DNA of 17,392 nt from positions 1 through 17,392 of the IMG/VR virus record IMGVR_UViG_2778261152_000002; one strand, written 5' to 3'. The DNA comes from a virus. Taxonomy: Duplodnaviria; Heunggongvirae; Uroviricota; Caudoviricetes. Below the pieces are notes generated by a model. The model searched no databases. It was not told where the DNA came from and saw nothing but the letters and a program-made list of their open reading frames with translations. A program made the translations under genes and the position numbers. How positions within the stretch are numbered: position 1 is the stretch's first letter; each line of letters begins with the position of its first letter. Below are positions 1 through 17,392 of this stretch, piece after piece.

Positions 1-6
1 GAGGCA

Positions 7-222
7 TTATTCACCTCTCGCAGCCTTGCGCTTATCTTCTTTAATCTTGAAATAAAGGTTTGTCAGGTACGTCAGCAAGCCAAATACCAGACTACCCAGC
101 ACACCTATTGCCGCCCACTGTGAGGGCGTGACTTTATCGAGCAACTGTAAAAACCAGTACCCGGCACTACCTGCTGAGGTGCCATAGGCGACACCCGTTG
201 TTAACTTATCCATGGATTTCAT
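7..222 (-). CDS. S: Class II holin (pinholin), phage 21 S-like, with dual start
   Basis: 71 aa beginning MKSMDK (Met1 and Met4 give the antiholin/holin dual-start motif), two hydrophobic segments, charged C-terminus [16 protein letters not shown] at 220-222, SD GAGGTGG upstream, TAA at 7-9. Close to phage 21 S as recalled from memory. Confidence 0.85.
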
Positions 223-257
223 AACCCCACCTCGCAGATGCGGGTGCTGTGTAATGG

Positions 258-288: not shown

Positions 289-1341
289 TTATTTCCCCAC
301 CAGCTCGTTTATCTCTTTCACTGTCTGGTTAAACCGCTCTGACTCAAGCTCAACACCTAAGGCCCGACGCCCCAGCGCCATTGCTGCTTTTATTGTGGAA
401 CCGGATCCCATAAAAAAATCAGCAACCAGATCACCAGGTCGACTACTGGCATTGATTATTTGCCGGAGCATATCCGCAGGTTTCTCACACGGATGTTTAC
501 CCGGGTAGAACTGAACGGGTTTATGCATCCAGACATCGGTATAAGGCACGGAGACTGATACGGAGAAATAGCGCCGGAGAGATTTAAACTCATCCAGCAA
601 TTCAGAATATTTGCGATTCAGTGAATCATAAGATGCCACCAGCTGGTGGTGTGGTTGTTCCAGTTGTTGTTCCTGAAACTTCTCTGCCGCTATACGGGAA
701 AACAGTGCCTGTAACTTCCGATAGTCAGCCTCATTCGGCAACTGCCACTGACTGGCACCAAACCAGTGGGAAACCATATTTTTCTTACCTGTGGCTTCGG
801 CAATTTGTTTTGCCGTTATACCCAGTTCGGCACGAGCATCCCTGAAATACGATATCAGCGGTGCCATTATGTGCTGTTTGAGTTCCCTTTCTTTTGCCGC
901 ATAGCAGTCACTTTTGCCGCGATATGGCCCCTGGTAATGTTCAGCAAACAGAACGCGCTCTGTGGCAGGAAAATATGCGCGCAGACTTTCTTTATTACAC
1001 CCATTCCAACGTCCGGACGGCTTCGCCCAGATGATATGGTTAAGCACGTTGAAACGTTCACGCATCATGATCTCAATATCAGATGCCAGGCGATGCCCAC
1101 AGAACAGGTAAAGGCTTCCGGCAGGCTTTAACACCCGCCAGAACTGGGCCAGACAGTGGTCCAGCCACTTAAGGTAATCTTCGTCCCCTTTCCACTGATT
1201 GTCCCAGCCGTTGGGTTTCACCTTGAAGTACGGCGGATCGGTAACAATCAGGTCAATGGAATCATCAGGCAGGGACTGAATAAAATGCAGGCAATCAGCG
1301 TTGATTAAATCAACACTGTTTATTTTTACAGTATTTTTCAT
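289..1341 (-). CDS. DNA methyltransferase, beta-class (DPPY before FxGSG), probably N6-adenine
   Basis: 350 aa. Motif IV DPPY near the N-terminus (IVTDPPYF), SAM-binding FFMGSGS near the C-terminus. ATG at 1339-1341, TAA at 289-291. Confidence 0.85.
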   Translation of the reverse strand: MKNTVKINSVDLINADCLHFIQSLPDDSIDLIVTDPPYFKVKPNGWDNQWKGDEDYLKWLDHCLAQFWRVLKPAGSLYLFCGHRLASDIEIMMRERFNVLNHIIWAKPSGRWNGCNKESLRAYFPATERVLFAEHYQGPYRGKSDCYAAKERELKQHIMAPLISYFRDARAELGITAKQIAEATGKKNMVSHWFGASQWQLPNEADYRKLQALFSRIAAEKFQEQQLEQPHHQLVASYDSLNRKYSELLDEFKSLRRYFSVSVSVPYTDVWMHKPVQFYPGKHPCEKPADMLRQIINASSRPGDLVADFFMGSGSTIKAAMALGRRALGVELESERFNQTVKEINELVGK

Positions 1342-1840: not shown

Positions 1841-1955
1841 TTAAGTTGTGTGGCGAAGTAACCACTCTTAACACGATACAATAGTTTTTGCGTACGCGTT
1901 AGTGGTTATGTAAACTTTCTCCATATAAAAACAGCAAAGAAGCGGATATTTTGAA

Positions 1956-2984
1956 ATGGCTACACTGGACGCATTCAGTAGAGTAATAACTCATCATACT
2001 ATTACGATCGATACACAATACCGTACACAGAAAATTGATGATAGCATCAGATCGAACTGTGTTTGCCCGGTACCAACAATGCGTGAACTTGCTTCTAAAA
2101 TAGTACGTTGTAAAGCAATGATGCACAGTTATGAAAAAGGAGACTTAGTTTTAACTTTGCAAGATGTAATCTTCTTATCAAACAGAGCCGATAAAAAACC
2201 CAGCCATCTTGGTCTTTTAATTAATGCTGTAGATAAAAATGGAAGCACTACTGTGTTAAAAAACATTAATACAGATGTTCGTACCGAAATATCACCAAAA
2301 CATGAGGAAGGTGAAGGTTACGAAGTTTCTTCTCATATGATTATTTCTCTAGACGGAAATATGCGAACCTATGACATGAGTTTTATGCCAATACCAGGAG
2401 TTTCCACAGCAAAAATAAATGGTTTCCTGAATAAAGTTCTCTTTAACGTAGCCAAAGATAATGAAGATATCTTTTCATGTAACACTTTAACAAATGAAGT
2501 ATCAAGTTTAACAAAGAAAAAAATAAAAGTATTATACAAGCCAGTCTTTGATATATCTGGAAAGTTAGATGAAGATTTGTTCAATAAAATAAATAAAGAA
2601 GGACTTTCTGATGTCGTTTTGGTAAAGAATGAATACAGAACTATTAATGCGCCAGATGTTAACGCGGCTATTATTCCTAAAGAAAGTACTTTACGCTTAG
2701 TACCAAACCATGGCCCCAACAATGTCCTTGGATGGATAAAATCTGTCTCAAACTTCTTTAAAGAAGATAAAAATGGAGGTTATGACTTAATAAAAATAAA
2801 ATTCAAAGAGCCAGAGACAGGATTCACAAGACAAGTTGACCTTCAAACTTCAAATGTAAGGCTCGATGGGCTGGAAAAAACATTTATCAAAAAGAGTGTA
2901 ATAAATGGTTTTTCTTCGCGCTTAAAGGATTCTTATGATAGTATTAACATGGAGTTTGTGAATAAGATTATCGAGGTCATGTGA
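1956..2984 (+). CDS. Hypothetical soluble protein, first gene of AT-rich two-gene cassette
   Basis: 342-aa ORF, ATG 1956, TGA 2982-2984. K/N/D/I-rich, no TM segments, no nucleotide-binding or catalytic motif I can recognise. Markedly lower G+C than flanking phage genes. Opposite strand to the surrounding late operon. Confidence 0.7.
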   Translation: MATLDAFSRVITHHTITIDTQYRTQKIDDSIRSNCVCPVPTMRELASKIVRCKAMMHSYEKGDLVLTLQDVIFLSNRADKKPSHLGLLINAVDKNGSTTVLKNINTDVRTEISPKHEEGEGYEVSSHMIISLDGNMRTYDMSFMPIPGVSTAKINGFLNKVLFNVAKDNEDIFSCNTLTNEVSSLTKKKIKVLYKPVFDISGKLDEDLFNKINKEGLSDVVLVKNEYRTINAPDVNAAIIPKESTLRLVPNHGPNNVLGWIKSVSNFFKEDKNGGYDLIKIKFKEPETGFTRQVDLQTSNVRLDGLEKTFIKKSVINGFSSRLKDSYDSINMEFVNKIIEVM

Positions 2985-2991
2985 GGCTAAT

Positions 2992-3567
2992 ATGATTAGT
3001 ATATTTTCACATTTATTTAGACCGTTTGGTTACCTTTTCATTAAGGGAATTAGTGGTAAGTGCGCATACGATTTTTATGCACCTGCCGGGCTTGCTGTGA
3101 TTTCTTTTTTTTACTTTTATTTATTTAAAATACCCACATCAGACCTACTAAAAGATGGCGGCTTTATTAAGTCTATATCTGGATTTGTATCAAATCTGCC
3201 AGGTTTTTATATAGCAGCTCTTGCAGCAATAGCCACTTTCAACAGAGAACAAATTGACTACCCTCTGATAGGAACTAATGGCACGCCTTTTATTAAAATT
3301 ACACGAACAAAAGAAAATGGTAGAATTGTTGACACTCAAGAGAAACTTACCAGAAGATTATTTCTGTGCATGTTATTTTCATTTTTAACTGCCCTCAGCA
3401 TATGCATAGTGATTTTCAACGCTTTTATCACACCACTAATAAACATACTGAATAATGATATAGCAAACTGGTGCTATATCATTATCTTTTTATTCCTTAC
3501 ATGGCAAATGCTTGTTTCAACATTTTTTGGACTATACTATCTTGGTGATAGGATTCACATTAATTAA
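2992..3567 (+). CDS. Hypothetical integral membrane protein (about 4 TM helices), second gene of cassette
   Basis: 191 aa. ATG 2992 is 7 nt after the upstream stop, with SD GAGG overlapping that stop (translational coupling). Four hydrophobic stretches (about residues 22-45, 62-85, 125-150, 160-185) separated by a charged loop. Confidence 0.7.
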   Translation: MISIFSHLFRPFGYLFIKGISGKCAYDFYAPAGLAVISFFYFYLFKIPTSDLLKDGGFIKSISGFVSNLPGFYIAALAAIATFNREQIDYPLIGTNGTPFIKITRTKENGRIVDTQEKLTRRLFLCMLFSFLTALSICIVIFNAFITPLINILNNDIANWCYIIIFLFLTWQMLVSTFFGLYYLGDRIHIN

Positions 3568-3922
3568 CTACCATAATGGGGTTTATAGTTATTATTACAC
3601 CGCTGATAAACCCCATGGCAGTCTGCAATTCCTTCCTAATTGTGCCATCTGAACATCTTCTCTTCTTGGCAATAGTGCGTAATGAGATACCAATAACAAA
3701 GTGAGCTATGATCAGCTCATATTCCTCTGGTTTATACTTTCGCAACCGAGCCACACAACCGTCTATCATGATGCCTTCATCATCATCACACTGGAGACGT
3801 GACTTTTTACCGTGTGGTAAAAGTCCCTTGAAACCAGCCGCTATCGGCTGCCAGTCCACACCACTATTTTCTGCTGCAGCCCATGCTCCCCAGCGGTCCA
3901 ATACTTCATACATATCACGCAT
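3560..3922 (-). CDS. Late-gene antitermination protein Q (small Q family, QuuD-like)
   Basis: Protein MRDMYEVLDRWGAWAAA...IAAGFKGL...SRLQCDDDEG...CSDG matches the about 125-aa Q-like antiterminator pattern as recalled. The track start at 3937 is TTG; ATG at 3920-3922 with SD GGAGA is preferred. Confidence 0.7.
   Translation of the reverse strand: MRDMYEVLDRWGAWAAAENSGVDWQPIAAGFKGLLPHGKKSRLQCDDDEGIMIDGCVARLRKYKPEEYELIIAHFVIGISLRTIAKKRRCSDGTIRKELQTAMGFISGVIITINPIMVVN
3576..3616. repeat. Perfect 11-bp inverted repeat ATGGGGTTTAT / ATAAACCCCAT with 19-bp spacer
   Basis: Read directly: 3576-3586 and 3606-3616 are exact reverse complements. Sits at the 3' junction of the cassette, inside the C-terminal codons of Q. 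Confidence 0.6.
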
Positions 3923-3939
3923 CAACTTTCTCCACAAAA

Positions 3940-4935
3940 TCAGGCCAGCACGCCAATTGCCAGCGCACGATCGATAAAACGAAATATCAGCTCCAGCTGG
4001 GAGCCATACTTCTCTTCAAATGCCACGGTATCCGCATGCAGCTCGTCGTGATGCTTTCTGCACAAAGGCAACACAAAAAGGTCATGCGCTTTTGTTCCCA
4101 TTCCACCCTGACCGTGACCTATCAGGTGGTGGGGATCATCAGCGGGCTTTCCACAACATGCACACGGCTGTGTCTTAACCCAGCGCGTGTACTTTTCATT
4201 AACCCAGCGGCGACGTTTTGGGCGTAACATAAAAGACTCCGGCGACTCCGGATCCACTTTCAGCGCCAGCACCTTTTTCGCTTTATCCTGGATGATACTG
4301 GTGGCAGGAACCGAAGGCACAAGGTCACTTTCCCGGGTGACAGACGGCACAACAGGCTTCGGTAATCTCAGTGCCTTACGGGCTGCACTTTCCGGTAAGG
4401 CATCCGCCAGGTCATTACGAACCAGCCACCAGCACAGTTCCGGCATTGTCACAACGTGACTGTCATCAAAACCGAGATCCCGACGCACGACAGACAACAC
4501 CCAGCGGGCACAGTTATCCGTTGCCATTGATTCCAGCCGTTCCGTGAATTGATCGCGCAGCTGGTTATCGCAGTGCCAGCACAGACGGATTGCGCCCGGA
4601 GCATGTCGCATTGTGGTCATGTTCTCGCTGTGCCAGTCGGAATGAGGCCACTGACAGCCTTTTTCACGAAGTAACCAGCTTTCAAGACATTCCACGCCAC
4701 CAGCACGACGGATCACTGCCTCATTACGGAACACGGCCCGAACGGCAGGATCATCCGCCAGTGGTTGTGATGCCGCCGGAACGGCACCACTGGCAAAAGA
4801 TGAATAACGTTCCGGCTCAGGCTCCAGCAGGACACGCCCCTGCATAAACAGGGGCATCAGCTCTGAACCAGGCCTGAACAATACGATCCCCATACGCGGG
4901 GCAATTTCAGGGGTCAGTAGTGCTCTCACGATCAC
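3940..4935 (-). CDS. DUF968-like phage protein with C-terminal HNH/zinc-finger-like motif
   Basis: 331-aa ORF (GTG start at 4935, 1 nt after the upstream stop). C-terminus CACCGKPADDPHHLIGHGQGG...LPLCRKHHDELH has paired Cys and His-His typical of HNH-like folds. DUF968 assignment is from memory of Qin prophage YdfU-like proteins. Confidence 0.65.
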   Translation of the reverse strand: MIVRALLTPEIAPRMGIVLFRPGSELMPLFMQGRVLLEPEPERYSSFASGAVPAASQPLADDPAVRAVFRNEAVIRRAGGVECLESWLLREKGCQWPHSDWHSENMTTMRHAPGAIRLCWHCDNQLRDQFTERLESMATDNCARWVLSVVRRDLGFDDSHVVTMPELCWWLVRNDLADALPESAARKALRLPKPVVPSVTRESDLVPSVPATSIIQDKAKKVLALKVDPESPESFMLRPKRRRWVNEKYTRWVKTQPCACCGKPADDPHHLIGHGQGGMGTKAHDLFVLPLCRKHHDELHADTVAFEEKYGSQLELIFRFIDRALAIGVLA

Positions 4936-7161: not shown

Positions 7162-7616
7162 TCTTCACCTGATGCAGCCCGCTTACTGCTTTTCCGTAAA
7201 CACCGTTCACGACGCGCCAGAAAATTGTTTCGTTCTGGCTGGGAGTGGCTTTCACGGAATGCCGCCATCCACACCGTTGCAGCACGACGGTATAAGCCCC
7301 TGGACTCCAGTTCTTCCGCCTGGCGGGTCAGGCACAAAATCACCCGCGGGTCGTTAGTGCCGACATAGAAATTGCGCACAGGTCTGGTTTCACGAACTGG
7401 TTGTGGTTCCGGATCCTGCGCTCTCTCAGTCAGGCGCGGGAAATGTCTGTGTGTATCTCCTTCACAACGGTGAGCCACACGCCCACTCTGACGTAACTTG
7501 CTTGCTGACTGCAGAACGCGCTGCCGTGAGTAACCTGCAAAAGCATCCGCAATGTCTCCGGAAGTACAGCCCGGATGGGCTTCAATGAATTTCTGAACGT
7601 CATTCAAAAGACTCAT
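7128..7616 (-). CDS. Hypothetical regulator with PerC-like C-terminal motif
   Basis: ORF to 7622 starts with GTG; ATG at 7614-7616 with SD GGGGTG is preferred. C-terminal LESRGLYRRAATVWMAAF...RRERC resembles the PerC-family signature as recalled. Confidence 0.5.
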   Translation of the reverse strand: MSLLNDVQKFIEAHPGCTSGDIADAFAGYSRQRVLQSASKLRQSGRVAHRCEGDTHRHFPRLTERAQDPEPQPVRETRPVRNFYVGTNDPRVILCLTRQAEELESRGLYRRAATVWMAAFRESHSQPERNNFLARRERCLRKSSKRAASGEEWYLSGNYVGA

Positions 7617-14016: not shown

Positions 14017-14321
14017 TGACCACTTTTACCGACAAAGAACTGATTAAAGAAATTAAAGAGCGTATCAGCAGCCTTGACGTGCGAGACGATATTGAGCGCC
14101 GTGCTTATGAAATCGCACTCCTATCTCTGGAAGTAGAACCAGATGAACGCGAAGCTTATGAATTATTCATGGAAAAGCGTTTCGGTGACTTAGTAGATCG
14201 TCGGAGAGCAAAAAACGGCGATAACGAATACATGGCATGGGATATGACTCTCGGTTGGATCGTCTGGCAGCAACGAGCTGGTATCCATTTTTCAACAATG
14301 TCACAGCAAGAGGTGAAATAA
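14016..14321 (+). CDS. Hypothetical early protein (YfdT-like, 101 aa)
   Basis: 101-aa ORF, SD GGAGG, TAATG overlaps with both neighbours. No motif recognised. Confidence 0.55.
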   Translation: MTTFTDKELIKEIKERISSLDVRDDIERRAYEIALLSLEVEPDEREAYELFMEKRFGDLVDRRRAKNGDNEYMAWDMTLGWIVWQQRAGIHFSTMSQQEVK

Positions 14322-14671
14322 TGGAGCCATACAGCCTCACACTCGATGAGGCCTGTCATTTTCTCAAGATATCCAGACCGACTGCCATTAACTGGATACG
14401 CACAGGGCGTCTTCAGGCAACACGCAAAGATCCCACTAAGAATAAATCTCCTTACCTCACAACACGACAAGCCTGCATTGCGGCTCTTCAGTCTCCGCTG
14501 CATACTGTCCAGGTGAGCGCGGGTGATGGCATAACAGAGGAAAGAAAATGTCACTCTTCCGCAGAGGTGAAATATGGTACGCCAGTTTCACATTGCCGAA
14601 CGGTAAAAGATTTAAACAGTCTCTTGGAACAAAGGACAAAAGGCAGGCGACAGAACTCCATGACAAGCTAA
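14321..14671 (+). CDS. xis: Excisionase (Xis), P22-like
   Basis: ATG 14321 with SD AGAGGTG gives 116 aa. N-terminal HTH-like segment [26 protein letters not shown]. Sits immediately upstream of int. The 3' end overlaps int by about 120 nt in another frame, so the true stop is uncertain. Confidence 0.55.
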
Positions 14672-15711
14672 AGGCTGAAGCATGGCGGGTCAGCAAACTT
14701 GGTGAAATACCTGATATAACGTTCGAGGAAGCGTGTGTCAGGTGGCTTGAAGAGAAAGCACATAAAAAATCACTGGACGATGACAAAAGCCGGATCGGAT
14801 TCTGGCTTCAACATTTCGCAGGAATGCAACTAAGAGACATTACTGAATCAAAAATTTATTCAGCAATGCAGAAAATGACGAACCGGCGTCATGAGGAAAA
14901 CTGGAAACTCAGGGCAGAAGCATGCAGAAAAAAAGGGAAACCTGTTCCAGAATACACGCCAAAACCAGCGTCCGTTGCAACGAAGGCTACGCATCTTTCA
15001 TTTATAAAGGCCCTACTAAGAGCCGCAGAGCGTGAATGGAAAATGCTGGATAAGGCACCAATTATTAAAGTGCCTCAACCAAAGAATAAACGGATCCGCT
15101 GGCTGGAGCCCCATGAAGCACAAAGGCTGATTGATGAATGTCCGGAGCCATTAAAGTCTGTTGTTGAATTTGCACTGGCAACAGGCTTAAGACGCTCGAA
15201 CATCATCAACCTTGAATGGCAACAAATAGATATGCAGCGCCGGGTGGCATGGATAAACCCGGAAGAGAGTAAATCAAACCGCGCAATCGGCGTTGCGCTG
15301 AATGATACTGCATGTCGCGTTTTGAAAAAACAAATCGGGAATCATCACCGTTGGGTATTTGTGTACAAGGAAAGCTGTACCAAACCAGACGGAACGAAAG
15401 CGCCAACAGTAAGGAAGATGCGGTATGACGCAAACACAGCCTGGAAAGCGGCGCTGAGACGGGCTGGTATTGATGATTTCAGATTTCACGACTTGAGACA
15501 CACCTGGGCAAGTTGGCTGGTTCAAGCCGGAGTCCCGTTGTCAGTGTTACAGGAAATGGGAGGCTGGGAGTCTATCGAAATGGTTCGTCGATATGCTCAC
15601 CTTGCACCTAATCACCTTACCGAACACGCACGGCAAATAGACTCGATCCTGAACCCATCGGTCCCAAATTTGTCCCAGTCAAAAAATAAGGAAGGTACTA
15701 ATGATGTGTAA
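14548..15711 (+). CDS. int: Tyrosine integrase (P22/Sf-type, 387 aa)
   Basis: N-terminus [34 protein letters not shown] typical of P22-family integrases. Catalytic-region residues in [11 protein letters not shown] and Tyr in RRYAHL. SD AGAGGA. Transcribed toward the att core. Confidence 0.9.
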
Positions 15712-15725
15712 CTTATTGATTTAAA

Positions 15726-15772
15726 TGGTGCCGATAATAGGAGTCGAACCTACGACCTTCGCATTACGAATC
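15726..15772 (-). other. attP core: 47-nt 3' fragment of tRNA-Thr (anticodon loop to CCA end)
   Basis: Reverse complement reads GATTCGTAATGCGAAGGTCGTAGGTTCGACTCCTATTATCGGCACCA: anticodon loop with CGU, T-arm GGTTCGACTCC, 3' CCA. Similarity to the tRNA breaks 5' of the anticodon stem, so this is not a complete tRNA. Matches thrW as recalled. Confidence 0.75.
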
Positions 15773-16061
15773 TGTAGCACCAATCATAACTATCTGTTTT
15801 AGCAAGCATTAACCGCATTCACTAAGCTATAGTTGATGGCACAAACAGAAAGTTGATGCATGATGTTGTCATGTATATGTCACAAATACGGCACAACGAT
15901 CTTCAAACATGTAGCCACACATCCACAGAAGAGCACAAAGCCTTGCAATCAAGTGCAAAGCTTTGTGTACCAGAGTTTTTCCTCATCAACTAACACAAGT
16001 ATCGATCGATTGAGACTTGGATGATAGACTTCATGCCTTTCAGAACTCATTGATTACATAA

Positions 16062-16424
16062 ATGTTAAAGCTATTTGCAAAGTACACCTCGATTGGTGTG
16101 CTGAACACACTTATACACTGGGTGGTTTTTGGTGTATGTATCTATGCCGCGCATACCAATCAGGCTCTGGCAAACTTCGCAGGTTTTGTTGTGGCTGTGA
16201 GTTTTAGCTTCTTCGCGAATGCAAAATTCACATTCAAAGCATCAACTACAACGATGCGCTACATGTTATATGTCGGGTTCATGGGAACACTGAGTGCAAC
16301 TGTTGGATGGGCTGCTGATAGATGTTCACTTCCTCCAATTGTCACTCTTGTCACCTTCTCCGCCATCAGCCTGGTGTGCGGTTTCGTCTATTCAAAGTTC
16401 ATTGTCTTTAGGAATTCAAAATGA
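16062..16424 (+). CDS. gtrA: GtrA, bactoprenol-linked glucose translocase (flippase)
   Basis: 120-aa 4-TM protein starting [20 protein letters not shown], characteristic of GtrA. ATGA overlap with gtrB. Confidence 0.9.
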
Positions 16425-17344
16425 AAATTTCGCTTGTTGTTCCGGTCTTCAATGAGGAGGCCGCAATACCAATCTTCTACAAAACGGTGCGAGAATTCGA
16501 CAAGTTAAAGCAGTATGAAGTTGAAATAGTTTTCATCAATGATGGCAGTAAAGACGCAACAGAATCAATTATCAACGCGCTTGCGATGTCAGATCCTCTT
16601 GTAGTTTCACTGTCATTCACAAGGAATTTTGGTAAAGAGCCAGCTTTGTTTGCTGGACTTGAACATGCAACTGGCAATGCAGTAATACCTATAGATGTTG
16701 ATCTTCAGGACCCAATCGAGGTTATCCCGCACCTGATAGAGAAATGGCAGTCAGGATCTGACATGGTTCTTGCTAAGCGATCAGAACGTTCTACTGATAG
16801 TCTATTAAAGCGGAAAACAGCGGAGTGGTTCTACAAACTACATAACAAAATCAGCAATCCAAAGATTGAGGAAAATGTTGGTGATTTTCGGCTGATGAGC
16901 CGCGATGTTGTCGAAAACATAAAGAGAATGCCAGAACGAAACCTGTTCATGAAAGGCGTGTTGAGTTGGGTTGGTGGCAAGACAGACGTCGTTGAATATG
17001 TCCGTGCTGAACGTGTTGCGGGAGATTCAAAGTTCAATGGCTGGAAATTATGGAACCTAGCACTTGAAGGTATTACCAGCTTTTCAACTTTTCCTCTCAA
17101 AATATGGACATATATAGGTTTGTTCGTCGCCGGTACAGCGTTCACGTATGGCTCGTGGATGATTATTGATACGTTAGCATTTGGTAACCCCGTTAGAGGT
17201 TATCCGTCAATTCTGGTATCGATTCTTTTCCTTGGAGGCATCCAACTTATTGGAATCGGTATTCTTGGTGAATATGTTGGCCGTATATATATAGAAACAA
17301 AAAAACGACAAAATAATTTTTTACTGAATAAAAATGAAATTTAA
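16421..17344 (+). CDS. gtrB: GtrB, bactoprenol glucosyltransferase (GT2 family)
   Basis: 307 aa. N-terminal GT2 fold signature ([11 protein letters not shown] ... INDGSKD ... DVDLQDP), C-terminal two TM helices. Confidence 0.9.
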
Positions 17345-17367
17345 AAAAACAAAAAACCCCGAATACC

Positions 17368-17392
17368 ATGAGGAAAATGGTTTATCATTTAT
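17368..17392 (+). CDS. Possible 5' end of the serotype-specific glucosyltransferase gene, truncated by window edge
   Basis: ATG at 17368 (or 17377) about 25 nt after the gtrB stop. In gtr operons the type-specific transferase follows gtrB. Only about 8 codons visible. Confidence 0.25.

Follow-up and report, generated by a model that had tools for sequence, protein, structure and literature searches.

The attP core of phages SfI, SfII, SfV, SfX and P22 is one and the same 46-mer (PMC3636060). Two such phages, SfI and SfX, have been shown experimentally to integrate in tandem at the tRNA gene thrW of Shigella flexneri 036_1d, with an att site between them (Sun et al. 2011, PMC3306764). In this study, a locus with the same core was analysed in a DNA stretch of 17,392 bp (the window), which is the entire contig NJMY01000073.1 of NCBI assembly GCA_002466665.1. 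It had been predicted that this stretch carries an intact attP between int and gtr and represents excised, packaged or circular phage DNA. The analysis points elsewhere: positions 15726-15771 and their flanks are most likely a composite att joint between two different prophages lying in tandem at thrW. Published work already describes the core, thrW as the target, the layout int-attP-gtr and tandem lysogeny at this gene, and the contig is another instance of them.

Results

Gene content and ends of the contig

Judging by its number, contig NJMY01000073.1 probably comes from a bacterial draft of many contigs and not from a phage genome. The ORFs up to position 15711 are all lambdoid early, nin or lysis genes: a holin fragment, a DNA methylase, DUF968, KilA-N, RusA, Dam, replication genes, cro, cI, yfdP-yfdT, xis and int. 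They are assigned here to a left-hand SfV-like prophage (A), which looks intact on the contig. ORFs and Pfam matches along the 17,392 bp revealed phage genes only and no host genes. With this phage-only content and an intact-looking prophage A, the contig, taken alone, is also compatible with free phage DNA.

The contig starts (window 1-236) inside a holin gene, in sequence 93% identical to the essD region of E. coli ES9, and it ends inside a type-specific gene:

gtrC, first 58 bp, 17335..17392, plus strand, read from the sequence and cut by the contig end

The start of gtrC is collinear with that of ES9, the alignment reaching window base 17392. No IS sequence was found at the contig end in gtrC; low coverage of AT-rich DNA and an insertion just past the end are both possible reasons for the break.

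A two-gene cassette interrupts the left part of the window:

DNA methylase gene, 289-1341, minus strand, flanking the cassette
Two-gene cassette (342 aa and 191 aa), 1956-3567, plus strand, between the DNA methylase and DUF968 genes
DUF968 gene, 3940-4935, flanking the cassette

The stretch 1899-3875 has no match in the prophage of E. coli APEC O78, and 1842-3943 has none in SfV. Neither cassette protein gave a Pfam match; they match the PADLOC candidate defence system PDC-M53 (1.3e-31 for its protein A and 1.7e-54 for its protein B).

Integrase, excisionase and integration target

The right end of prophage A carries the recombination genes:

xis (excisionase), 14237..14671, plus strand, Pfam HTH_17 (3e-08), overlapping the start of int
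int (tyrosine integrase of the P22/SfV type, here "type 1"; 387 aa), 14548..15711, plus strand, Pfam Phage_integrase (3.2e-48)

The xis gene is collinear with the annotated xis of SfV. The expectation of an integrase of the P22/Sf kind was borne out, the window Int being 98.5% identical to SfV Int and 90% identical to P22 Int. It is only 56% identical to the Int of HK446 and to int2 of ES9 (here "type 2"); the GenBank record of HK446 describes its Int as SfX-like.

The predicted target, thrW, also agrees with the chromosomal matches. In the best 30 hits among 5,426 complete E. coli genomes, the match to the window ends exactly at 15771. In APEC O78, the same early region and an int whose product is 100% identical to the window Int over the annotated 372 aa lie directly against a complete tRNA-Thr, with proA and proB beyond it; this arrangement is an ordinary int-side host junction.

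The thrW core

The 350-bp gap between int and gtrA (15712-16061) houses the att core:

att core, 15726..15771, minus strand (tRNA sense), 46 bp equal to the 3' 46 nt of tRNA-Thr(CGU) thrW

The presence of a tRNA-Thr (CGU) 3'-end fragment between int and gtrA had been noticed from the letters alone, and its alignment to a host thrW had been proposed as a check. When this alignment was made, window 15726-15771 was identical at 46 of 46 positions to the reverse complement of thrW positions 31-76 of APEC O78. The fragment is thus real, its length being 46 nt instead of the 47 nt first given. It spans the anticodon loop, the CGU anticodon and the CCA end. Towards the 5' end of the tRNA, identity to thrW extends as far as position 31, the final base of the anticodon stem's 5' strand, which is where the similarity had been said to stop. 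The 46-mer occurs once in the window and, with up to 3 mismatches allowed, had 0 matches in 200 dinucleotide-preserving shuffles; the match is therefore not due to chance. The same exact 46-mer was found in the attP regions of 11 phages (SfV, SfI, SfII, SfIV, SfX, HK446, mEpX2, HK542, mEp213, ES18 and P22).

A functional tRNA-Thr gene was considered for this position and rejected: only tRNA positions 31-76 are present, ARAGORN calls no cloverleaf there, and it reports no complete tRNA gene anywhere in the window.

Two types of arm around one core

The DNA on the two sides of the core carries different repeats:

Two direct GTCCCA repeats, 15661-15666 and 15672-15677, plus strand, within the 3' end of int (core-relative positions -65 and -54)
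Arm on the gtr side, SfX/HK446 type ("type 2"), 15772..15936, plus strand, 165 bp, recognised by sequence identity and repeats
Three G[GT]CACAA repeats, 15838-15844, 15879-15885 and 15890-15896, plus strand, at +67, +108 and +119 from the core

On the int side, the GTCCCA motif is found at the same positions in P22, ES18, SfV, SfI, SfII and SfIV and is absent from sites of the SfX/HK446 type. These repeats are candidate int-side arm-type sites at which a type-1 Int may bind. On the gtr side, GTCCCA is absent from 15772-15936 on both strands, and there is one near-match to it past a palindrome further right (GTACCA at 15967). The arm 15772-15936 is 94-95% identical to the arms of SfX and HK446, 97-98% identical to those of other SfX-type phages (HK542, mEp213 and ECP1) and 100% identical to the chromosomes of E. 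coli ES9 and 19451123. It has no similarity to the 76-bp arm of SfV or P22; beyond the core, the P22/SfV-type arm reads TATAAGAA...GTCCCA. Accordingly, an alignment of the window with SfV runs at 99% up to 15771, is lost over 15772-15936, and resumes at about 81-82% from 15937 through gtrAB.

Repeat positions relative to the core were compared across att sites:

Type 1 sites (P22, ES18, SfV, SfI, SfII, SfIV): GTCCCA on the left at -65 and -54, and on the right at +55
Additional type 1 right-arm GTCCCA: +109 in ES18; +109 and +120 in P22
Type 2 sites (SfX, HK446, mEpX2, HK542, mEp213): G[GT]CACAA on the left at -65 and -54, and on the right at +66/67, +107/108 and +118/119
Window site: GTCCCA on the left at -65 and -54; G[GT]CACAA on the right at +67, +108 and +119

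All 11 phage genomes examined have a homotypic attP, whereas the window site is heterotypic, with a type-1 left arm and a type-2 right arm. The two att types have the same core and nearly the same repeat positions but different repeats, and their integrases are 56% identical. One geometry with differing repeats would be expected for the arm-type sites of two diverged heterobivalent integrases. The P22 attP has five arm-type sites, which fits the count of two plus three repeats. The motif of these sites is not given in papers citing the P22 footprinting study (Smith-Mungo et al. 1994); the repeats are therefore taken as putative arm sites on the strength of their conservation and position.

Search for the joint in phages and chromosomes

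A 381-bp probe (window 15560-15940) was compared with 50,697 phage records. None of the 108 matching records covers both arms. Among the matches listed, SfV, SfI, SfII, SfIV, phi458 and ES18 cover the left arm and the core, and SfX, HK446, HK542, HK75, mEpX2, mEp213, mEp043 and ECP1 cover the core and the right arm.

Bacterial chromosomes gave a different picture. At least 80% of window 15400-16400 is covered in five complete E. coli genomes, in ES9 at 100% identity, and the hybrid joint is present in six closed E. coli chromosomes: ES9, GF66.2, G4/9, two SWYHX138 strains and E89, the last with an IS100 inserted in the spacer. Every locus read has the same order, starting with a lambdoid prophage or remnant, xis, type-1 int, the core, the type-2 arm and gtrABC, and continuing with P22-like tailspike or tail genes, type-2 int, a complete tRNA-Thr, proA and proB. 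The chromosomal loci with the hybrid joint are two prophages in tandem at thrW. Two to three copies of the core lie within 41 kb in ES9, E89, G4/9 and GF66.2.

Two of these loci have further peculiarities. In GF66.2, a third exact copy of the core (7222-7267) has on its left a partial integrase with one type-2 repeat and on its right an arm 96% identical to that of SfV, which makes it a reciprocal hybrid; with this third copy, the thrW locus of GF66.2 holds at least three elements in series. In SWYHX138.261ft, a CDS beside the core (19171-20307) is labelled "IS30 family transposase" in RefSeq. Its last ~300 bp align to the 3' end of the window int (95.7% over the whole match), which suggests that the CDS is either misannotated or altered.

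A search of IMG/VR with an exact 89-bp probe spanning the hybrid joint also recovered seven predicted viral contigs of 23-62 kb. Like the chromosomal arrays, the DNA examined in them, a stretch that stops short of the contig ends, continues rightwards from the joint with P22-like tail genes.

Spacer palindrome and gtr genes

Features to the right of the arm are as follows:

Conserved imperfect palindrome (stem of 14 bp), inner end of the arm, 15933..15968, no strand assigned, predicted hairpin of -20.5 kcal/mol
Region upstream of gtrA common to Shigella gtr phages, 15937..16061, plus strand, about 81-82% identical to SfV
gtrA (bactoprenol-linked glucose flippase; part of the right-hand element, B), 16062..16424, plus strand, Pfam GtrA_DPMS_TM
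gtrB (bactoprenol glucosyltransferase), 16421..17344, plus strand, Pfam Glycos_transf_2 (2.7e-29)

The palindrome gives a terminator-like match on the minus strand, and sequence like it occurs in the far arms of SfV, P22, SfX and HK446; the SfII record has a putative rho-independent terminator annotated in the int-gtrA spacer. A consensus scan of 15600-16150 found no sigma-70 consensus promoter. In lambda, the sib/tI element is split from int upon integration. The palindrome lies across the core from int, a position that recalls sib/tI, and at a tandem joint int would regain a sib/tI-like element from the neighbouring prophage.

The gtr variant of the window is rare, being present at 97% identity or more in only four complete E. 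coli genomes. In all four, a gtrC of 1,485 bp comes next, together with a P22-like tailspike or tail-fibre gene. Over 15700-17392, the window has 99.0% DNA identity to ES9 and 19451123, and for 19451123 the value is likewise 99.0% over 15725-17392. In 19451123, a complete P22-like prophage of about 44 kb has the variant at its distal end. The first 300 bp of its right arm are 100% identical to the window, and its integrase (WP_231818808.1) is of type 2 and adjoins thrW-proA. The int and gtr genes of this single lysogen thus lie at opposite ends of the prophage, as had been stated for phages of this kind. The same gtrABC variant (97.5%) is found in E. coli 74-2 (7583-11885) at argW, directly after intS, where no thrW-type core was found. 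The gtr module thus moves between P22-like prophages with different integration sites.

Discussion

A probable composite joint of tandem prophages

The flanks of the core belong to two phage types, which most likely makes the site a joint between side-by-side prophages and not the attP of a free phage. The observed core identity, the arm types, their combination being found in no sequenced phage, and the identical joint in closed chromosomes are best explained in this way. The left half, up to 15771, would be the int end of the lambdoid SfV-like prophage A, comprising xis, type-1 Int and its int-side arm. The right half, from 15772, would be the distal end of element B, most likely a P22-like prophage, comprising the type-2 arm and gtrABC. 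The SfX-type integrase of B itself would lie about 10-45 kb further, against a complete thrW-proA. A composite joint has arms of two att types on one core, as seen here, and the homologous joints in other strains belong to arrays that end at a complete thrW.

Such a joint could arise as follows. Both phage types recombine through the same 46-bp core, and a first phage, once integrated, offers a usable copy of the core at both ends to a second; integration of this kind was demonstrated for SfI and SfX (PMC3306764). The second integration would leave one core with the int arm of one phage on one side and the far arm of the other phage on the other side. For excision, A would then use the joint as its int-side site, and B would use it as its gtr-side site. 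Its own Int and Xis should still be able to excise each phage by acting on the joint and on the other end of that phage, and the native homotypic attP of the phage would thereby be restored. We infer the tandem state of this genome because homologous closed genomes show the same joint; element B and thrW probably lie on other contigs of the draft.

A simple attL or attR junction between prophage and host was rejected, as the right flank consists of a phage arm and gtr, and not of the 5' half of thrW followed by proA.

Other explanations

The explanation that comes closest to the original prediction is a native, intact attP of one excised circular or packaged (circularly permuted) phage that carries int and gtrABC in the same genome. 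The order int-core-gtrA-gtrB is exactly that of the packaged SfV and P22 genomes, the contig lacks any host gene, and P22-like phages have gtrABC beside attP and then the tailspike, so that a lambdoid early region joined to gtr is possible in principle. The site itself fits only in part: it has the core, the cognate int and xis and the int-side repeats of a native P22/SfV-type attP, but the window lacks a homologous far arm with GTCCCA at +55. Its heterotypic arms stand against the 11 of 11 homotypic phage sites, none of the 108 matching phage records spans both arms, and the gtr half (99%) belongs in 19451123 to a prophage with a type-2 int. The contig, moreover, comes from a bacterial draft assembly, and the draft of a single lysogen would normally yield host junctions instead of attP. 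A native attP is therefore very unlikely. The prediction of a non-integrated or circular phage thus loses its footing on the heterotypic arms, the phage records, the six chromosomes and the bacterial draft. It was to be abandoned if host chromosomal genes flanked the locus on the same contig or if the fragment matched no host tRNA. Host genes are indeed absent and the tRNA match is present, but tandem lysogeny is touched by neither point, because it, too, results in the order int-core-gtr.

A recombinant phage or prophage with a truly heterotypic attP, whether proficient in integration or not, ranks just below the native site and is likewise very unlikely. It might be produced, for example, by homologous recombination between tandem lambdoid prophages, which share Q, nin and lysis regions and could recombine there. 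The seven predicted viral contigs (23-62 kb) that carry the exact joint are in keeping with such an origin. Most of their identifiers, however, resemble those of isolate genomes, judged by the numbering, and the DNA examined in them has the layout of the chromosomal arrays, from type-1 int through the core to P22-like tail genes. The hybrid combination is also absent from the sequenced phages (0 of 108 matching records), and in native sites the repeats at all five arm positions follow the att type, an argument for the importance of the arms. Equally small is the probability that the contig is a viable recombinant phage, circular or packaged, whose heterotypic attP combines type-1 Int and its int arm with an SfX-type far arm. 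If this were true, Int would either assemble its intasome on a foreign arm, or integration at thrW would need only one cognate arm; the foreign-arm sites would be nearly co-positioned with the native ones (+67, +108 and +119 versus +55, +109 and +120).

Least probable of all is an assembly artefact in which the int arm and the gtr arm of different core copies, of which a polylysogen may have three or more, were mis-joined: short-read assemblers can mis-resolve repeats shorter than the read length, and the core is an exact repeat with two to three copies within 41 kb in ES9, E89, G4/9 and GF66.2, but the identical joint exists in closed chromosomes (100% over 1 kb in ES9), usual reads and k-mers are longer than 46 bp and normally span such a repeat correctly, and assemblers would usually break at unresolved repeats instead of joining them.

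Implications for annotation

Under the preferred reading, a tandem joint, the order of int, tRNA fragment and cargo on a contig is no proof of an excised phage, as polylysogeny at one tRNA gene gives the same order. Arm-repeat typing can tell a native attP from a tandem joint from the sequence alone, since the two integrase lineages that use thrW share the core and the geometry of the site but not the repeats. The gtrABC genes are probably cargo of the neighbouring P22-like prophage, and not of the SfV-like prophage whose int lies next to them. This ownership bears on which phage confers O-antigen modification and on what induction would mobilise. The biology was known already; the main value of the case is a caution for annotation, with the arm-repeat code as a mildly useful by-product.

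Comparison with known systems

The tandem in S. flexneri 036_1d resembles the window in having one integrase of the P22/SfV type (SfI) and one of the SfX type, as judged by arm motifs and by comparison with HK446. The order differs. SfI adjoins thrW in 036_1d, as we read the report, and the middle joint there would be the reciprocal one, with a type-2 int arm and a type-1 gtr arm; in the present case the distal prophage is of type 1, and the neighbour of thrW would be the P22-like element of type 2 that carries gtr. The tandem in 036_1d was demonstrated by PCR in the strain itself, whereas the arrangement proposed for the window was deduced from related genomes.

The native attP of SfV and P22 shares with the window the 46-bp core, the gene order and GTCCCA at -65 and -54, with 99% identity to SfV in the int-side arm. 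Its far arm, in contrast, is 76 bp long with GTCCCA at +55, whereas that of the window is 165 bp long with three G[GT]CACAA repeats, and gtrAB of the window is only about 81% identical to gtrAB of SfV. The attP sites of SfX, HK446, mEpX2, HK542 and mEp213 show the opposite pattern: they share the core and a far arm that is 94-98% identical, with three co-positioned repeats, but their Int is 56% identical to that of the window, and their int side has GGCACAA, not GTCCCA, at -65 and -54.

The thrW/ptwF pair on either side of the cryptic prophage CP4-6 in E. coli K-12 offers a further parallel, and the GenBank notes for HK446, HK542, mEpX2 and mEp213 describe attP as similar to both thrW and ptwF. 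As at the locus studied here, a partial copy of thrW lies at the far end of a thrW-integrated element. However, ptwF is a junction between element and host, whereas the site in the window has phage DNA on both sides.
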